The notes: generated by a model from the sequence alone, not told the origin. A stretch of 15,931 bases of DNA from Deinococcales bacterium (GCA_031418155.1 JANOWZ010000417.1:1-15931); one strand, 5' to 3'. Shown: positions 6,138-12,338, counted from the stretch's first letter. Numbers and translations are program-made.

Positions 6138-6229
6138 AGAGGAAAGTAAAAGCAGAGAAAAGAGGAAAGTAAGTTCAGATCAAGGTTTTAGGCTGTTACT
6201 TTCCTCTTTTCTCTTTAATCTTTCCTCTT
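6138..6229 (-). terminator. Long hairpin (perfect 19 bp stem AGAGAAAAGAGGAAAGTAA / TTACTTTCCTCTTTTCTCT, about 23 nt loop) immediately downstream of gvpN; possible intrinsic terminator or attenuator
   Basis: The perfect inverted repeat lies at 6154..6172 and 6196..6214. The outer flanks extend it to about 35 bp imperfect. On the minus-strand transcript it is followed by GCUUUUACUUUCC. Confidence 0.45.
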
Positions 6230-6235
6230 GTTTTT

Positions 6236-7240
6236 TTACAACGTCATGGCGCGTGATGGTTTGCGTTCACCACCGGCAAGCACGGGCTCGCGGATCTCGA
6301 GGATTTCCGTGCGTTCTGCTGTACGCTCGAGTGGTTTGATGGTGCGGGCTTTCGGCAAGAGGTGCAGCATTTTGGCAACCGCTTGGCTCGAGACGGTATG
6401 GCGTTCGTGTTCGTCGCTGATGCTGCCGGTCAGGACATCCAAAACCACGCGCTCGAACTCAAGGTTTCCGGCGCTGACTTCAAGGTTGCGGACGCTGGCT
6501 ACTCGAGCGATTTGCAGTGCGGCGCGAACGCTGTGTTTGATTTTCAGTTTGCTTTCGCCACGCACGCTGGCGACCAGTTCGGTGATGGCGAGCGCATCTT
6601 CGAGTTGCAATCCTGATCGGGCGGCAACAATTCCGCCTTGCGTCTCGAGGTCGAATCCCTCTAAACGCATGGTCACTAGGCGATCACGCAAGGCTTCTTG
6701 CGCGAGGTGCACTCCGGCGTAATCTTCCGGGTTGCTGGTGAAAATCGCTCGGAAGTCCGGGTGAACTTTCATGTACCCGCCCTTGCCCGCCGCGCTCGGG
6801 TAGATCAAAATACCTTCCTCGAGCACCGGCAACAGGACGTTGTTCGCTTCGGCTTTGGAGCGTGTGAACTCGTCATAAACGAGCGTGTAACCGTTCTTGC
6901 AGGCAATCGTCAGTCGTTCATCGACCCAGGAATTGCTGGAATCTTCGTCCACTTTCAAAACGCTGTGGATGTAGTTGTCCACGACTTTGCGGCGGCGAAA
7001 TCCGTTGTTCGCGCCCAGCAAATTGCTGGAACCAAACTCGTTGTCACCGGCGATCAGCACCATCGGGCGGCCCAGTTTCGTGGCGACATGCAACGCGAGT
7101 GTGGTTTTTCCGGTGCCGCTCGCGCCTTCAAAGTTCACGCCGAGGCCAGCCTCGAGATATCCCAAAGCGCGTTTGGTCAGGTCTTTGACCTGCGCGGTTT
7201 CAACGAAATCTTCGCGCTGTTTGGTGCTGATTTGACTCAT
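6236..7240 (-). CDS. gvpN: Gas vesicle protein GvpN (MoxR-like AAA+ ATPase)
   Basis: FVETAQVKDLTKRALGYLEAGLGVNFEGASGTGKTTLALHVATKLGRPMVLIAGDNEF matches the conserved GvpN N-terminus and Walker A closely. Walker B VYDEFTRS is present. The ATG overlaps the upstream stop (ATGA at 7237..7240). Confidence 0.9.
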   Translation of the reverse strand: MSQISTKQREDFVETAQVKDLTKRALGYLEAGLGVNFEGASGTGKTTLALHVATKLGRPMVLIAGDNEFGSSNLLGANNGFRRRKVVDNYIHSVLKVDEDSSNSWVDERLTIACKNGYTLVYDEFTRSKAEANNVLLPVLEEGILIYPSAAGKGGYMKVHPDFRAIFTSNPEDYAGVHLAQEALRDRLVTMRLEGFDLETQGGIVAARSGLQLEDALAITELVASVRGESKLKIKHSVRAALQIARVASVRNLEVSAGNLEFERVVLDVLTGSISDEHERHTVSSQAVAKMLHLLPKARTIKPLERTAERTEILEIREPVLAGGERKPSRAMTL

Positions 7241-7983
7241 GCGCCACTCGAGACGTAACCGTTATCGGAAAGTTTGATTTTGCCGCTGGCGACAAGGCGT
7301 TTGAGCATCGTGGCAACTTCGCTTTGATCGAGTTTCAAGCCTTGTGCGAGGTCCTCGAGTGACAATCCTGGAACGCTCGAGATGGTGCGCAAGACGATGT
7401 GCTCGCGGCGTTTCTCGACTGGGTTCAGCACGGCAACGCCGACGGAAAGAGCGCCCTGCGGCATTGGTTTGGCGGCAGGCTTGCTGGCTGGACGGGCCGC
7501 ACGCACGACTGGTTTGACATCCGATCCGCGCATTTGACGGGCGAATCCCTCGAGTTGTTCACGCATGACCGCACGTGCGGTGGCGTGAGCCTCGAGCAAT
7601 TGACCTGTTTCGGCACTGAGCGTTTCGCGTTCACTGGCGCGTTTGCTGGCATCACGGCGGGCGCTCGAGATTCGTTTTGCACCTTGAGCGGCAAGTGTTT
7701 CTTGCACCGTGGCTTTGCGTTGGTTGTTTTCGTGTGCGCGATCAGTTGCGCGTTGAGCGCCCTGGGTGCTGCGAATCTCCGCGATAATCTCGAGCTTCGC
7801 ATGAACGGCTTGCGCTTGGGTTGCAACCTCGTTTGCACGGGCGATGTGTTCAACGGCGCGGATGGTACTTGCCGCCACGAATTCTTCGCGGCGTTCCTGA
7901 TCAAAATTCAGGCGGTCGCTGGCGGATTTGTTCAGTTTCTCGCGCAGTGCGGCTCCAGCCTGGTCATCTAATGTCATCGGCAT
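7237..7983 (-). CDS. Hypothetical coiled-coil protein with KPAAKP-type linker and C-terminal winged-helix-like domain; gene directly downstream of gvpA (possible GvpC-like structural or regulatory role)
   Basis: It is Ala/Glu/Arg/Gln-rich and predicted helical over roughly the first 150 aa. A VKPVVRAARPASKPAAKPMP linker follows. The C-terminus HIVLRTISSVPGLSLEDLAQGLKLDQSEVATMLKRLVASGKIKLSDNGYV resembles a winged-helix (LexA/ArsR-like) fold. The ribosome-binding site is AAAGGTGA. Confidence 0.55.
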   Translation of the reverse strand: MPMTLDDQAGAALREKLNKSASDRLNFDQERREEFVAASTIRAVEHIARANEVATQAQAVHAKLEIIAEIRSTQGAQRATDRAHENNQRKATVQETLAAQGAKRISSARRDASKRASERETLSAETGQLLEAHATARAVMREQLEGFARQMRGSDVKPVVRAARPASKPAAKPMPQGALSVGVAVLNPVEKRREHIVLRTISSVPGLSLEDLAQGLKLDQSEVATMLKRLVASGKIKLSDNGYVSSGA

Positions 7984-8087
7984 GATTTCACCTTTTTGGA
8001 TGTGTCATTGGGTACTGGATGGATACGGGATATGGTTATCGAATAGGGCTTGAACTCGAGGTTTGGGCGGTAGGTGAGGTGTTGAGG

Positions 8088-8118
8088 CTTTTACTTTCCT
8101 CTTTTCTCTTTCCTCTCG
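8088..8118 (-). repeat. Second copy of the purine-rich intergenic element (19-mer TTACTTTCCTCTTTTCTCT identical to 6196..6214) in the gvpA-downstream intergenic region
   Basis: There is an exact 19 nt match to the gvpN-downstream hairpin arm, with similar flanks (GGCTnTTACTTTCCTCTTTTCTCTTT..CCTCT). On the sense (minus) strand it reads GAGAGGAAAGAGAAAAGAGGAAAGTAAAAGCC. Confidence 0.6.
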
Positions 8119-8164
8119 CCCCCAAGCAATTCGGGCGGGCCGAGCGTGATGCCCGACCCACCCG

Positions 8165-8196: not shown

Positions 8197-8415
8197 TCAG
8201 ACTGCTGGTGCGGCGACCGTCGAGGTCAAACCGATGGCTTCGGCGTACTTCAAGTACGTCTCGACCGATGCAGCAACGACGCGGGCTTCGATGGCGATCA
8301 ATTCGATGCCGACCAGTGAGACGCGGGCGAATGCGTCGATGACGATGCCTTTGTCCAGGATGCGGTCCACAACTTCGCCGAGGCTCGAGGAGTTCATGCT
8401 TTTTTCGACTGCCAT
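8197..8415 (-). CDS. gvpA: Gas vesicle structural protein GvpA
   Basis: [64 protein letters not shown] is a near-consensus GvpA (72 aa). The ATG at 8415 is preceded by a GGAGGT ribosome-binding site. The ORF-track entry 8197..8592 is an in-frame upstream extension with no support. Confidence 0.95.
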
Positions 8416-8840
8416 ATGTACCTCCGTAAAATTTGAATTCTTGGTTCTTGCCCAGGGATAAATGGGGCGATGTTGGGAAAAGAGGTTCAAGAATTCTTTT
8501 GGGTGTTTTTCCGGTTCTTGCCGGTGTGTGAATGGTGCACCCTCGAGCAAGGTTTGAGTAAGCCTCTTCTGGGTATTGGGTATACCCCCCATTTGGGTAT
8601 GCCCGTTTGGGGCTGGTCAAGTTGCGGTCTCGCGCCTACTTTGTTTGGACTCGGAACTGTGGCAAAACTTGTGTGATGCACAGTATTTGTGGGTTCCGCT
8701 ACAGTTTGGTGGTTTGAAAGAATTTTGCAAGAGATGGTTCGGCAAACTGAAGCTCTGGCAAGGGCGAAAAGTTGAACAGGGCTTCTACAAGTTCAGGCCG
8801 ATAAGTTCCAGGCCAGCAGCACAACGAAAGGGGGCGTGAG
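8416..8840. promoter_or_regulatory. About 425 bp divergent regulatory region between gvpA (-) and the acidic E2-like gene (+)
   Basis: It holds no convincing ORF. It contains the GGGTATACCC palindrome plus two more GGGTAT half-sites (about 8570..8606), direct repeats GGTTCTTGCC (8443..8452 and 8513..8522) each near GAATTCTT, and TTGAAC hexamers on both divergent sense strands. Confidence 0.5.
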
Positions 8841-10661
8841 TTGAGTACACGAGGATTCGGCGACACAGACTGGACCGACGGGTTTTCTCGACCGTGGGAT
8901 GTTTCCGTGGCATCATTTGAAGCCATCGAAACCGACCTGGACGAGTTGATCGACCCGGACGGGATCGAGTCTGCATTGGCCATCGACGATCAGGGGAATT
9001 TCCTCGCCTGGATGGATTCGGAACGCGGGATGGCTCCAGTGCCGCTCGCGGCTTCAGAGTTCGAGGCTCCGGTGGCGCAAGATTTGAACGCGCCAGCGGC
9101 GAAAGTGTCTAAGGGTTTCAAACGGTTCACGCCGCCAGTTCCGGTGGTTGAGCCCAGCGAACCGACGACCTATCAGGCCAGCAGCGAGGCGATTGATGCG
9201 GTGTTTGCCGAACTCGAGGCGAGCGCCAAAGCCAGCACAGAACAGTCAGATGCACCCGAGGTTGAGGCGCAGGCAGATGTTCAGGTTCAGGCCGATTCGG
9301 ACATTTATGCTGAGGTCCATTCTGAAGATCAAGACGATCAGGGTGCGGTTGAAGCAAAGGCCAAGAAGCCAAAAATTGATCCGATGGCGCTCGAGGATGC
9401 GTTCGAGAGTGTGCCGTTTGACCTTCCAGAGTTGATGGGCGAACAGTCTGGCACTGTACTCAGTGAGCAACCTGTCGCGCTCGAGGGTGAAGCGGAGGCG
9501 GTCGAAGCTCAGGCAGAAGTTGAACTCCCAGCAGTTGAAGCTCAGGCAGAAGTGGTCGAGGTTGAAGTTCCAGCAATCGAAGCTCAGGTTGAAGTTGTTG
9601 AGGCCGAAGCAATTGTCATTCCCGAGGGCGAACCGGTCGAACCCGTCGCCGCCTGGAAGAAGCCCGTCAAACCCAAAAAGCAACCCAGCGAATTTGGCAT
9701 CGACGAAGTTCCACTCGAAGCGCTGCTCGAGATTGCGAATACCGAGGCCGAAGACGAAGAGAATCATGCCGAGGCCGAAGCCGTCACGATTGACCTGCAA
9801 CCCGAGGCGGATGCGCTTGCCGCAGTTGGCTTGGGCGAAGCAAGCCTTCAGGAAGGCATCATGGCCGCTTACGAGATGGAGGGTGCGCCAATCACCGATT
9901 TGAGCGCATTGATCGAGAGCAGCAAAGCACTCGAGGTTTCAACCGCCCGTGAAGCGGTCAACGAACCGGTCGCCACACCCGTTCATGCCGGATTTGTTGC
10001 TACTGCTGAAAGCAATGAATCGCCAGAGGCCGTGCTCCAGGCGCTCGAGACCAGCGTGCTCGGATTTGAAACACCAGAGATTCAACCGCTCGATGCAGAA
10101 CTCGAAACGGATTCCAGCGTCGCGGCAGTGCTGGCCCCAGAAATCATGAATGTCCCGATGATGCCCGCGACGACCACGTTGCGCCGTCACTTCGACGCGA
10201 CCGACCTGATCGAAGCGCAGATTCGTTTGCGTCACGCACTGCGCCCATTGGACGTTTCGATGGTCTCGCTCTTGGGTCGCGCCGCCGAACGTTGCGCCCT
10301 CGAGTTGCCGGGAATCAAAACGATTGCACTCGCCGAACTCGGCGACAATGGGATTGCAGTCACCGCCAAGATCAAAGCCGTCGAAAGCTTCCGCGAGATG
10401 CTTGCGGGCATCAGCGAGGGCTCGAGCGGCGTTCGTGGCGACCTGAGCGTCGTTGACATCAGCGACCTCGGCTTGGATGAAGTGGTCTTGCCACTCGCCG
10501 GACCGCACCTCTTGCTGACCCGTCTTTCGCCACACCCGGACAAACCGGGTCGCATGCGCGGCACGGTCTCTCTCTCTGGCCTCGTGAACCTTCGCGCTGG
10601 CGCATCATTCCTCGATCAGGTCGTCTCGAAACTCGAGGCTCCGATCACGCTGATGGTCTGA
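8841..10661 (+). CDS. Acidic tandem-repeat protein with a C-terminal 2-oxoacid dehydrogenase E2 acyltransferase (CAT-like) catalytic-domain homologue lacking the catalytic His/Asp
   Basis: A TTG start is preceded by an AAAGGGGG ribosome-binding site. The N-terminal roughly 430 aa are highly acidic and low-complexity with EAQAEV-type repeats. The C-terminal roughly 170 aa align to the E2 catalytic domain: RRHFDATDLIEAQIRLRH against HFDKTDITELEAFRK, VVDISDLGLDEV against FTISSIGGLG, and TVSLSGLVNLRAGASFLDQVVSKLEAP against ISLSFDHRVIDGADGARFI. In that alignment DHR is replaced by LVN. Confidence 0.7.
   Translation: MSTRGFGDTDWTDGFSRPWDVSVASFEAIETDLDELIDPDGIESALAIDDQGNFLAWMDSERGMAPVPLAASEFEAPVAQDLNAPAAKVSKGFKRFTPPVPVVEPSEPTTYQASSEAIDAVFAELEASAKASTEQSDAPEVEAQADVQVQADSDIYAEVHSEDQDDQGAVEAKAKKPKIDPMALEDAFESVPFDLPELMGEQSGTVLSEQPVALEGEAEAVEAQAEVELPAVEAQAEVVEVEVPAIEAQVEVVEAEAIVIPEGEPVEPVAAWKKPVKPKKQPSEFGIDEVPLEALLEIANTEAEDEENHAEAEAVTIDLQPEADALAAVGLGEASLQEGIMAAYEMEGAPITDLSALIESSKALEVSTAREAVNEPVATPVHAGFVATAESNESPEAVLQALETSVLGFETPEIQPLDAELETDSSVAAVLAPEIMNVPMMPATTTLRRHFDATDLIEAQIRLRHALRPLDVSMVSLLGRAAERCALELPGIKTIALAELGDNGIAVTAKIKAVESFREMLAGISEGSSGVRGDLSVVDISDLGLDEVVLPLAGPHLLLTRLSPHPDKPGRMRGTVSLSGLVNLRAGASFLDQVVSKLEAPITLMV
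9500..9620 (+). repeat. Imperfect tandem DNA repeat (about 3 units of 33 to 42 nt, core GAAGCTCAGGCAGAAGT) encoding VEAQAEV(V/E) repeats
   Basis: GAAGCTCAGG(C/T)(A/T)GAAGT recurs at about 9506, 9540 and 9582. Confidence 0.6.
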
Positions 10662-10689: not shown

Positions 10690-10758
10690 TGTGCTAGACG
10701 CGAACAAGAATTTCTCGAGCAATATTTTAAAAATTATCATGCAGTGGAAAGGAAACAT
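10690..10758 (+). promoter_or_regulatory. AT-rich segment (TTTCTCGAGCAATATTTTAAAAATTATCATG) upstream of the HD-GYP gene; candidate promoter
   Basis: The local AT-richness is unusual in a window of roughly 58% GC. It lies directly upstream of the GGAAAGGAAA ribosome-binding site and the ATG at 10759. No exact -35/-10 assignment is made. Confidence 0.3.
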
Positions 10759-11403
10759 ATGAGTGATCTCTTCAGAGACGGTTTCATTGACGAGATCGTT
10801 GATGCCTACGTCAAGGACTTCGGCGACCGCGTGGAAAACACCGACCGCTTCGAGCACTACTCCCCAGGACATGCCCGTCGTGTAGCCGAAACCAGCGTCG
10901 CCATCTGCGAAGGTTTGGATTTCGAGGAAGAAGACATTCGCGTCGTCAAAACCGCCGGGTTGCTCCACGACATCGGCGAGGTCATTCAAAAGCACGCCTT
11001 CTACGGCGCACCTCGAGTCTTGACCCCAGAAGAAACCGTTGAGATGTGGCAACACAGCCTGATCGGTGAACGCGAAGTGGCACGTCGCGGTTTTGGACGC
11101 AAAGAACAGTTGCTGGTGCGTTGGCATCACGAACGCTGGAACGGTCAGGGCTACCCGGACATGCTGTTCGGACCCGACTTGCCGCTCGGTGCTCGCATCA
11201 TCCGTTTGGCGGACACCTGGGATGCGCTGACAAACGACCGTCCGTGGCGTTTGGCGATGTCTGAAGCCGATGCGCTCGAGGAGATCAAACTCGGTGCAGG
11301 CATGGAGTTCGATCCAGAACTCGTCGGCTTGTTCCTCGAGTTGCACCAATGCGGAGCCTTGATCCCAAGTGAAAACTTCGCCATCTCAGGAGGCAAACGA
11401 TGA
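10759..11403 (+). CDS. HD-GYP domain protein (stand-alone cyclic-di-nucleotide phosphodiesterase-like)
   Basis: The HD motif (LLHDIGEV) and the HD-GYP signature WHHERWNGQGYPD are both present. The start is assigned to the ATG at 10759, 5 nt after the GGAAAGGAAA ribosome-binding site. The ORF track begins at a GTG at 10744. Confidence 0.8.
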   Translation: MSDLFRDGFIDEIVDAYVKDFGDRVENTDRFEHYSPGHARRVAETSVAICEGLDFEEEDIRVVKTAGLLHDIGEVIQKHAFYGAPRVLTPEETVEMWQHSLIGEREVARRGFGRKEQLLVRWHHERWNGQGYPDMLFGPDLPLGARIIRLADTWDALTNDRPWRLAMSEADALEEIKLGAGMEFDPELVGLFLELHQCGALIPSENFAISGGKR

Positions 11404-12338
11404 GTGGCGTCAAAGAATACGTCGGCGCAGAAGTCATGCTGCTCTCAAAAGTCCTCAAGCTCGAGAGTGTCGCCGTACCCTTCGGTGGACGCAACCCAAT
11501 GTGGCTCGGCTGGTGGATGAAGACTTTGGGCAAGAGCGTGCACATGAACGACCTGTTGCACTTTTCATACATGGACTCGGTCGGCCTGATCGAAAACGAA
11601 GGCTTCTTGTTGGACGGCGACACCCTCGGCGAACTGACCAAAGACATCGGCGACGGCAAGCAACTGACCAACCCAGAACTCGCCCGTCTCGTCCCAATGC
11701 AAGACGCATACTTCTTTGATCAACTTCGTCCACGCATCGAAAAACTGCCAGCCCGTCAAAAAGGTATCGCCATTCGAGCCGGATACAACACCATGCGATA
11801 CGCCCAAGTCATGGACTCCTCGAGATTCGTGAACCTGCGCGTCTCCCTCGACAAAGTCTTCGCCCGTGAAGTCGAAGAGATCAACAAGCGCATCACCTCG
11901 AGCGGCAAAGGCCAAGCGTACATGGAAGAGGCCGGAAGCTTCGTCGGCAACGTTCGCGCCAGCGCCCTGTACATGCAACTGCCAAGCATGGGCGGCTTCA
12001 GCACCGAATACGCTGCGGGCGCACGTCCACGCGGACCACTCGGACGCGAAATCTGGGCACGCGGCCCAAGCAAAACCTGGATGCCAGAACTGAAGGCCGC
12101 CACCAAAGGCACCTTCGGCGACCGCTTCACCTCACGCGAAGCGTACTTCAAAATGGTCTCGGAATTCCTCGAGAAAGCCAACGATTACCCAGTCTGGGTG
12201 TTCAACCTCGAAGAAAGCGAATACCCCGATGTCCTGCGTGCCGTGATGCAGTTCCGTAAGCCAAAAGCCGTGCATCGTTTTGACACACGCGAAGCGAGCG
12301 GCGGGTACATGAGCTACTTCTTGATCGCAGAGAAATAA
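11400..12338 (+). CDS. Dam-like (D12-class N6-adenine methyltransferase fold) protein with a non-canonical motif IV (MQLPS in place of DPPY); translationally coupled to the HD-GYP gene
   Basis: An ATGA overlap with the HD-GYP stop spans 11400..11403. Residue patterns parallel E. coli Dam: KEYVGAEVMLLSKVL against KWAGGKYPLLDDI, VPFGGR against PFVGAG, HMNDLLHFSYM against ADINSDLISLY, and RAGYNTMRYA against NRYGYNGLCRYN. The position expected for DPPY reads YMQLPSMGG. No [DNS]PP[YFW] occurs anywhere in the protein. Confidence 0.5.
   Translation: MSGVKEYVGAEVMLLSKVLKLESVAVPFGGRNPMWLGWWMKTLGKSVHMNDLLHFSYMDSVGLIENEGFLLDGDTLGELTKDIGDGKQLTNPELARLVPMQDAYFFDQLRPRIEKLPARQKGIAIRAGYNTMRYAQVMDSSRFVNLRVSLDKVFAREVEEINKRITSSGKGQAYMEEAGSFVGNVRASALYMQLPSMGGFSTEYAAGARPRGPLGREIWARGPSKTWMPELKAATKGTFGDRFTSREAYFKMVSEFLEKANDYPVWVFNLEESEYPDVLRAVMQFRKPKAVHRFDTREASGGYMSYFLIAEK

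Follow-up and report, generated by a model that had tools for sequence, protein, structure and literature searches.

A putative composite operator array between predicted divergent promoters in the gas-vesicle cluster of a Deinococcales-like clade

We analysed a 15,931-nucleotide stretch of DNA from a Deinococcales bacterium (GCA_031418155.1 JANOWZ010000417.1:1-15931; hereafter the window), in which the gas-vesicle gene gvpA on the minus strand and the gene of a 606-amino-acid (aa) acidic protein on the plus strand diverge from a common spacer. The segment at 8561-8614 of this spacer is probably a composite double-stranded operator array, situated between predicted back-to-back promoters and controlling both operons through a multimeric factor specific for ACCC/GGGT arms. 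How gas vesicles are regulated has been worked out in few organisms, namely haloarchaea (GvpD/GvpE), Serratia (GvrA-C) and some cyanobacteria, and the outcome of the analysis is a compact, testable control element, with exact bases and two predicted promoters, for the gas-vesicle cluster of an uncultured Deinococcales-like clade. The element might be used to retrieve its regulator, and it could connect buoyancy with the neighbouring HD-GYP and PAS signalling genes.

Conserved cores in the gvpA spacer

The array and its three cores were delimited as follows.

8561-8614: whole array, 54 bp, three pseudo-palindromic cores, roughly two-fold symmetric about 8592
8561-8576: core 1, AGCCTC-TTCT-GGGTAT, degenerate outer core on the gvpA-promoter side, centred about -43.5 from the predicted gvpA start
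8582-8600: core 2, ATACCCCCC-ATTT-GGGTAT, central and best palindromic box
8599-8614: core 3, ATGCCC-GTTT-GGGGCT, outer core on the acidic-protein promoter side

The cores take the form (A)TACCC-N4-GGGTA(T), that is, a C-rich arm, a 4-nt A/T-rich centre and a G-rich arm, with ATACCC-ATTT-GGGTAT as the best example. In the window, the core centres are 24 bp (cores 1 and 2) and 14 bp (cores 2 and 3) apart, and cores 2 and 3 overlap by 2 bp.

Relatives were collected from the contigs of close homologues of the 248-aa protein encoded next to gvpA (only ten close homologues, all metagenomic) and from contigs carrying the exact GvpA sequence, a protein that public assemblies contain on 93 or more blocks. 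Eight distinct lineages made up the window group, with GvpN identities of 96-97%, and the 43% of 4-fold degenerate columns that were invariant across seven of its lineages served as the neutral baseline. Further loci were reached through GvpN homologues: sister loci at 74-81% identity (L016-L020, L028-L029), L023-L025 at 67%, and the Deinococcota-type clusters L026 (2300-2789) and L030 (1696-2053), the most distant, at 57-58%. The same cores were found upstream of gvpA in four more diverged groups (L016; L017; L019 with L028; L023), in which GvpN was 67-81% identical, the downstream protein was 30-33% identical and the remaining spacer was unalignable. Besides the gvpA start region, the array was the only intergenic segment shared with the sister groups (blastn, 63 nt, E=6e-5). 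The first-pass annotation of this DNA had proposed a regulatory region in the divergent gvpA spacer, and a conserved cis-regulatory element is indeed what the comparison revealed.

In ~130 kb of non-redundant locus sequence, the array occurred once per locus and only upstream of gvpA. A strict DNA pattern built on it had 1 match in 185,579 species genomes, on a contig of a Deinococcales-labelled metagenome-assembled genome (MAG) from a sister group, and from this match we infer the clade assignment of the window. The distribution of the array also follows that of the divergent operon: the operon is present in all groups that carry the array, and L026 and L030 have neither. The L026 spacer has a repeated motif of its own, TAGGCACAA-like and present about four times. 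The only match to the strict pattern in the metagenome collection was L022 727-764, between metal ATP-binding cassette (ABC) permease-like and secreted-protein genes, which reads CCCCATTTGGGTA CTCCATTTGGCAA CCCATTTGGGGCT with TTGACG immediately after it; chance may account for this match, or it may be part of a wider family of CCATTTGG motifs.

Across 13 lineages, two or three cores were present per lineage, with centre-to-centre distances of only 14 or 22-24 bp, and the CCC-N4-GGG distance was constant save for a 5-nt centre, ATTGT, in core 1 of L019 and L028. Equivalents of core 1 were found in every window-group lineage (ACCCTC-TTTC-GGGTAT and similar), as well as in L016 and L017. The inner arms of core 2, ACCC and GGGT, were invariant in 11/11 lineages, while its two outer positions varied on one side only, with 0 compensatory changes; in the sister groups this core reads ATACCC-ATTC-GGGTAT or ATACCC-ATTT-GGGTAT. 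Core 3 was the most conserved part of the array (12-13/15 columns invariant), and CCCC-NNTT-GGGGCT was found in L016, L017, L019 and L028. The array of L016 reads CCCTC-ATTT-GGGTAT GGCGCGT ATACCC-ATTC-GGGTAT ... CCCC-AGTT-GGGGCT. Within the window group, the conserved bases were CCTC and GGGTAT (8563-8576), the C-run (8586-8590), TGGGTA (8594-8599), CCC (8602-8604) and TTTGGGGCT (8606-8614), and 15-nt windows over the conserved bases around the last of these had 10-13/15 invariant columns. In this group the arms of the array changed little or not at all, and the inter-core spacers varied freely. This conservation, this geometry and the flanking hexamers described below are read directly from the aligned loci. 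The fixed geometry, the invariant arms without covariation, the position upstream of both predicted promoters and the near two-fold symmetry together argue for a double-stranded operator, and protein recognition is favoured over a selected RNA stem because the inner arms are invariant, the changes are one-sided and compensatory pairs are absent.

Two natural variations in core layout were observed. In L002 (5390-5425) and in L003, which has the same sequence, 14 bp between two CCCAAA repeats have been lost; cores 2 and 3 are thereby joined, and the two cores that remain are spaced 24 bp apart. Comparison with L004, L007, L011 and L014 showed that the C-run of the core 2 left arm (8585-8590) differs in length, with 6 nt in the window, 8 in L014 and 5 in three lineages; the length differences arose mostly by substitution, and the core spacing stayed at 23-24 bp.

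The first-pass annotation had drawn attention to three GGGTAT hexamers and a 10-bp palindrome. On the plus strand, 8570-8606 reads T GGGTAT T GGGTATACCC CCCATTT GGGTATGCCC, with GGGTAT at 8571-8576, 8578-8583 and 8595-8600, its complement ATACCC at 8582-8587, and the perfect palindrome GGGTATACCC at 8578-8587. These positions were located correctly, as were the distances to the gvpA ATG (8415, minus strand; 163-172 nt from the palindrome) and to the divergent TTG (8841; 254 nt away); a one-mismatch copy of GGGTATACCC, GGGTATGCCC at 8595-8604, had been missed. The hexamer cluster is beyond chance: both strands of the window contained 5 GGGTAT matches compared to 1.03 expected, a number reached in 0/200 shuffles, and 4 hexamers fell inside 30 bp, compared to a maximum of 1 across 1000 first-order Markov simulations. 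The sole GGGTAT outside the array, at 12221, and an ACCC...GGGT at 12187 were considered as further boxes and rejected, since they are Tyr-Pro codons of the 312-aa gene.

The palindrome had been taken as the central operator, with the remaining hexamers as auxiliary half-sites, and this anatomy did not hold. Perfect 10-bp palindromes numbered 16 in the window (20.5 ± 4.7 simulated), another of them, AAGAATTCTT, lies in the same spacer 90 bp from GGGTATACCC, and because such palindromes occur at chance frequency the palindrome alone is not evidence of function. Most of GGGTATACCC falls in variable spacer and is peculiar to its own lineage within the window group; relatives with 96% identical GvpN have GGGTGTCAGA, GGGTGTCTTC, GGGTATCGGT, GGGTATCGGC or GGGTATTGGC at this position. 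No part of the region was less conserved than positions 8578-8585, which varied across seven lineages; 15-nt windows over 8571-8590 had 5-6/15 invariant columns, which is the neutral level. GGGTATACCC was also present in L017, formed where two cores with centres 14 bp apart meet, and in L028, where the spacer happens to vary to this sequence. It is a by-product, formed where a lineage-specific extra GGGTAT in the spacer abuts the ACCC of the core 2 left arm. The earlier regulatory interpretation was right in spirit and wrong in anatomy: the conserved unit is ACCC-N4-GGGT, the opposite arrangement of the same half-sites, in three cores at fixed spacings. A perfect promoter-region palindrome can thus mislead.

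Of the 16 window palindromes, 6 are TGCTCGAGCA or GGCTCGAGCC, all intragenic (917, 1905, 2795, 3669, 13618, 14292). CTCGAG recurs beside the array in several lineages at varying positions.

Flanking hexamers and a candidate binder

Beyond the two array edges we found the following elements, of which the hexamers are conserved in position across lineages.

8532-8537, minus strand: CACCAT, predicted -10 of the gvpA promoter, 23 bp from the array edge
8637-8642, plus strand: TACTTT, predicted -10 of the acidic-protein operon promoter, 22 bp from the array edge
8511-8524, minus strand: small inverted repeat CCGG-CAAGAA-CCGG at the predicted 5' terminus of the gvpA transcript, invariant across the window group

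On the gvpA side, CAYNAT was present 22-23 bp beyond the array edge in 13/13 lineages (CACTAT or CACGAT in the window group, CATGAT in L016 and L017, CAAAAT in L019, CACAAT in L028 and L023). On the acidic-protein side, TANNNT was present 22-23 bp beyond the edge in 12/13 lineages (TACGTT or TACGGT in the window group, TAAACT in L016, TAGATT in L017, TAACAT in L019, TAGCAT in L028), with L023 not clear. In L017 and L019 this hexamer is followed, after ~35-45 nt, by a good ribosome-binding site and the start codon of the acidic-protein gene, and the annotated acidic-protein start in L016 is probably too long. The 6-bp stretches adjoining the array, at the -35 position, match TTGACA poorly on both sides. 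The hexamer positions suggest two back-to-back promoters with starts near 8525 (minus strand) and 8649 (plus strand), relative to which the outer core centres would lie at about -43.5 and -42.5 and the central core at -67.5 and -56.5.

We propose an operator that would sit exactly between the promoter of the gvpA/gas-vesicle operon, leftward, and that of the acidic/HD-GYP-like/312-aa operon, rightward. A putative multimeric, sequence-specific transcription factor would occupy the ACCC/GGGT cores. The outer, more degenerate cores, ~43 bp upstream of each predicted start, would touch the weak -35 regions, so that occupancy would govern both promoters at once. Poor -35 hexamers on either side and the location of the outer cores at about -43 slightly favour activation, from a class-II-like position.

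We considered and rejected a sigma-54 promoter under enhancer control of the Serratia GvrA/GvrC type. None of the window-group lineages has a conserved sigma-54 GG-N10-GC (-24/-12) on the gvpA strand; GGGCATGAT...GCA is confined to L016 and L017, where it overlaps the CATGAT hexamer, and the window contains no enhancer-binding-protein gene. A generic terminator scan detected none at the element.

Several further features were observed around the predicted starts. Within the spacer, conservation peaked in the block at 8506-8545, where up to 15/15 columns did not vary among seven lineages; its gvpA-strand sequence is GGTGCAC(N)ATTCACACACCGGCAAGAACCGGAAAAACACCC, and it includes the predicted -10, the palindrome GGTGCACC and the CCGG-N6-CCGG repeat. 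Hairpins of other sequence occupy the same place as this repeat in L016 (CCGGG-AAAAAC-CCCGG) and L017 (CCCGAA-ATAAAA-TTCGGG). In the predicted gvpA leader, GAATTCTTG (8435-8443) and CAAGAATTC (8488-8496) could form a 9-bp long-range stem near the ribosome-binding site; L001 retains the pairing via two-sided changes (TTCTGA/TCAGAA), and the single-sequence fold was not significant (z = -0.3). A second conserved block (8716-8765, 11-13/15 invariant) lies in the predicted 190-nt acidic-protein leader and reads CCTTGCCAGAGCTTCAGTTTGCC...TCTCTTGCAAAAT on the minus strand.

The gene next to gvpA had been put forward as encoding a candidate binder, on the grounds of a winged-helix-like C-terminus.

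7237-7983, minus strand: gene of the 248-aa protein, after gvpA, candidate binder

The structural part of this proposal was upheld by Pfam, AlphaFold2 and Foldseek. AlphaFold2 predicted one long helix (5-152), a disordered linker (155-183) and a C-terminal winged helix (188-245; H188-203, H209-216, H220-233, E236-239, E242-245) with a predicted local distance difference test (pLDDT) score of ~80, and nothing past the wing. The Pfam MarR_2 match was borderline (27.2 bits, cut-off 27), and sequence similarity to MarR proteins of the PDB was weak (E ~0.2). The best Foldseek matches were DNA-binding winged helices, among them the CggR DNA-binding domain, with a root-mean-square deviation of 0.8 Å over 59 columns, and those of IclR, MarR and MntR, with E only ~2e-3; winged helices that do not bind DNA were matched as well. 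The protein thus has the winged-helix fold of a MarR-type regulator and lacks the MarR dimerisation helices (alpha1, alpha5, alpha6), in whose place a single continuous helix and linker precede the winged helix.

Orthologues occur in all seven groups, including L026 and L030, which are without the array, and in the sister groups they follow gvpA at 30-33% identity. Those of L026 and L030 keep the winged-helix end and have an N-terminal part expanded to long Q/E/R-rich repeats of 348-440 aa. The putative recognition helix is not conserved across the groups that share the box (SEVATMLKRL, NELRELLRKL, SELRVLLNAL, ADFESSIRRL). In an exhaustive full-family search, this very narrow family comprised 9 clusters among 1.84 billion representatives, with no annotated relatives; a profile of the winged-helix domain alone retrieved a single fragment, nearly identical in sequence, and protein-pattern scans with the 248-aa family gave no matches in the genome and metagenome collections. 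That this protein binds the array cores is possible but doubtful. A bifunctional version, in which the helix would lie on the vesicle surface as GvpC does and the tethered winged helix would sit on the ACCC-N4-GGGT cores, is quite improbable; if true, sequestration on growing vesicles would feed the assembly state back to transcription of gvpA and the HD-GYP operon.

Competing explanations

Four other readings of the spacer were weighed against the operator array. The cores might be operators of a CsoR/RcnR/CstR (DUF156) tetrameric repressor encoded elsewhere and responding to a copper, sulfide or redox signal, which we consider unlikely. Published boxes of this family closely resemble the arms of core 2, whose G/C tracts are flanked by a TAC/GTA repeat as in CsoR-type sites (in the window, and as ATACCC-ATTY-GGGTAT in L016, L019 and L028); two tetramers bind per site, and Thermus has two family members (PMC10318464). 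However, the canonical box is ATACCC-N5-GGGTAT (TAC-X9-GTA), whereas the cleanest boxes here, in L016, L019 and L028, have N4 (X8), the window has N7 (X11), and L004, L007, L011, L017 and L023 have X10. The two Thermus sites look unlike the array box, the open reading frames of the window had no PF02583 match, six-frame translations of 197 kb of loci contained no CsoR signature, and there is no known tie between the CsoR family and gas vesicles. Rather improbable is the model in which GGGTATACCC is the operator of a dimeric regulator, the other GGGTAT copies are auxiliary half-sites and the 7237-7983 protein is the binder. The predicted winged helix at residues 188-245, a gene that lies inside the regulated operon with an orthologue in every array group, a long helix and flexible linker that could tolerate differing half-site arrangements, and the recurrence of GGGTATACCC in L017 and L028 are consistent with it. 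Yet 10-bp palindromes are at chance frequency, 8578-8585 is neutral and differs in all other window-group lineages, and the two recurrences are a core junction and a spacer variant, respectively; moreover, L026 and L030 keep the winged-helix orthologue without a GGGTAT array, the recognition helix diverges among groups with the same box, and the Foldseek matches include winged helices that do not bind DNA.

A series of RNA or single-stranded DNA hairpins (GGGUAU-loop-AUACCC, CCCC-GUUU-GGGG) in a 5' leader, acting on stability, attenuation or translation, is very unlikely. The CCC-N4-GGG cores could form tetraloop hairpins, but the z-scores of the relatives were unremarkable (-1.1 to -2.3), the stems were invariant or changed on one side with 0 compensatory pairs in 11 lineages, and the array lies upstream of both predicted -10 hexamers and so would not be transcribed. 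Its polarity relative to gvpA also looks flipped between groups, and Rfam had no match within 8400-8860 at E ≤ 1, its weak matches all falling at 6138-6229. The same apparent flip would suit a mobile or recombination palindromic element (of the repetitive extragenic palindromic or miniature inverted-repeat transposable type, or an invertible switch) or a neutral palindromic relic: the array is a large imperfect palindrome, its T-rich centres and GGGGCT end switch sides between the window group and L016, L019 and L028, the best alignments to these three loci were flipped (scores 21-26 vs 11-12 unflipped), and the L002/L003 deletion between CCCAAA repeats removes one core. Against such an element, which we regard as highly improbable, the array is a single copy at the same place in each locus with fixed distances to the flanking hexamers, its strict pattern was matched once in 185,579 genomes plus once in an unrelated metagenome contig, no recombinase or transposase gene lies in the window, orientation is uniform per group (eight window-group lineages one way; L016, L019 and L028 the other), and conservation of the arms exceeds the neutral level. 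A clean inversion of the array between groups is not claimed; the alignments of L017 and L023 are ambiguous in orientation because the array is nearly symmetric.

The operator array controlling both operons thus remains our preferred reading, and several observations weigh against it. The sign of regulation given above is tentative, and repression by occlusion would fit the data just as well. The comparisons all lie within a narrow clade, and conservation could be partly inherited rather than selected; this is disfavoured because neutral invariance is 43% and the flanks are unalignable. Both strands of the array fold, and the plus strand of the window gives a long imperfect hairpin centred on the array (-25.2 kcal/mol, 11-bp stem). 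The predicted transcription starts are placed by hexamer positions alone, the gvpA-side hexamer begins with C, not T, and a simple sigma-70 consensus scan detected no promoter at these sites. Finally, no gene in the 16-kb window can be confidently assigned as the binder, whose existence and identity are put forward as a prediction.

The gas-vesicle locus and known regulatory systems

The array is flanked by the first genes of two divergent operons.

8197-8415, minus strand: gvpA, 72-aa major gas-vesicle protein (Pfam Gas_vesicle E=3.2e-14), ATG at 8415, GGAGG ribosome-binding site
8841-10661, plus strand: 606-aa acidic protein, TTG start at 8841, first gene of the divergent operon, co-occurring with the array

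Downstream of gvpA, the same strand encodes the 248-aa protein (7237-7983), a GvpN-type AAA protein, a 96-aa protein and a 163-aa Hsp20-like protein, followed further downstream by a CDC48-type AAA protein and three GvpF/L proteins, one of them fused to DnaJ. The divergent operon encodes the 606-aa acidic, HD-GYP-like and 312-aa proteins in this order, and an ABC transporter and a methyltransferase come next. The C-terminus of the acidic protein was considered as 2-oxoacid dehydrogenase acyltransferase-like, and this assignment was dropped, with no support from Pfam or a PDB sequence search. For the HD-GYP-like protein (10744-12338), the best NCBIfam similarity was to a cyclic di-GMP phosphodiesterase response regulator, and in relatives PAS-domain or PatA_N plus HD proteins adjoin its gene (upstream ends of L016 and L017; L023 1-1057). 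These neighbours hint at second-messenger signalling linked to gas-vesicle control.

Other elements were observed in the gas-vesicle operon. A 35-nt element, pyrimidine-rich on the plus strand and purine-rich on the gene strand (AGAGGAAAG...), occurs at 6187-6221 and 8082-8116 (89% identical), in the spacers after gvpN and after gvpA. The first of these spacers also holds a perfect 19-nt inverted copy (6154-6172), which gives a long hairpin at 6138-6229 (-43 kcal/mol, z = -7.0); the weak Rfam matches of this hairpin were microRNA-like. On the minus strand, a GC-rich 14-bp hairpin at 8132-8164 lies ~30 nt past the gvpA stop codon (region -60.7 kcal/mol, z = -4.9) with no U-tract after it. Possible roles are termination, attenuation or mRNA stabilisation, by which it would set how much gvpA is expressed relative to the downstream genes.

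Among known systems, the sites of CsoR/CstR regulators come closest to the array in sequence. The Streptomyces CsoR-family box is ATATACCCCTNAGGGGTATAT, with an essential TAC/GTA inverted repeat (PMC3902906); that of the B. liaoningense csoR-cueA divergon, TATACCCnnnnnGGGTATA, lies in a divergent promoter (PMC5057107); and the S. mitis CstR box is ATATACCCTTATGGGGTATAT (PMC8643695). In Thermus TTHA1953, a change of ±1 bp in site spacing lowers affinity 10-15 fold (PMC10318464). The C. glutamicum CsoR-family box ATACCCCnnnGGGGTAT was likewise compared with core 2. These boxes share with the array ATAC...GTAT-ended pseudo-palindromes with C and G tracts, a divergent promoter and sites of ~16-20 bp occupied by several protein molecules. 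They differ in having N5, whereas the centres here are N4, or N6-7 with a longer C-run, and the array combines three cores in a fixed arrangement. In addition, CsoR/CstR sites lie over the -10/-35 region, whereas the array cores are centred near -43, -57/-67 and -81; no DUF156 gene was found in the window or in 197 kb of loci, and the genes of the array concern gas vesicles, not metal or sulfur detoxification.

A MarR-family system would share with the present locus a winged helix, here with weak MarR similarity, and several 16-bp pseudo-palindromes in a divergent spacer. It would differ in that the 248-aa protein has a 150-residue helix and a linker in place of dimerisation helices, and in that its gene lies within the regulated operon rather than divergent from it. 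In haloarchaea, GvpE-responsive upstream activating sequences lie between the divergent gvpA and gvpD promoters. There, as here, dedicated central cis elements stand between back-to-back gas-vesicle promoters and serve both directions, whereas the haloarchaeal promoters are archaeal, the activator is of leucine-zipper type, the sequences are unrelated and the window contains no GvpD/GvpE homologues.

Divergent promoters under LysR-type regulators combine two sites, a strong one for recognition near -65 and a weaker one for activation near -40. The array resembles this layout in its strong central palindrome at ~-67 and degenerate site at ~-43 from the predicted gvpA start, as well as in a footprint of ~55 bp. 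It differs in carrying T-N12-A rather than T-N11-A, in the absence of a LysR-type gene from the window and in a layout that is mirrored for the second promoter. We conclude that the element is probably an operator array specific to its lineage, familiar in kind and read by a putative binder.

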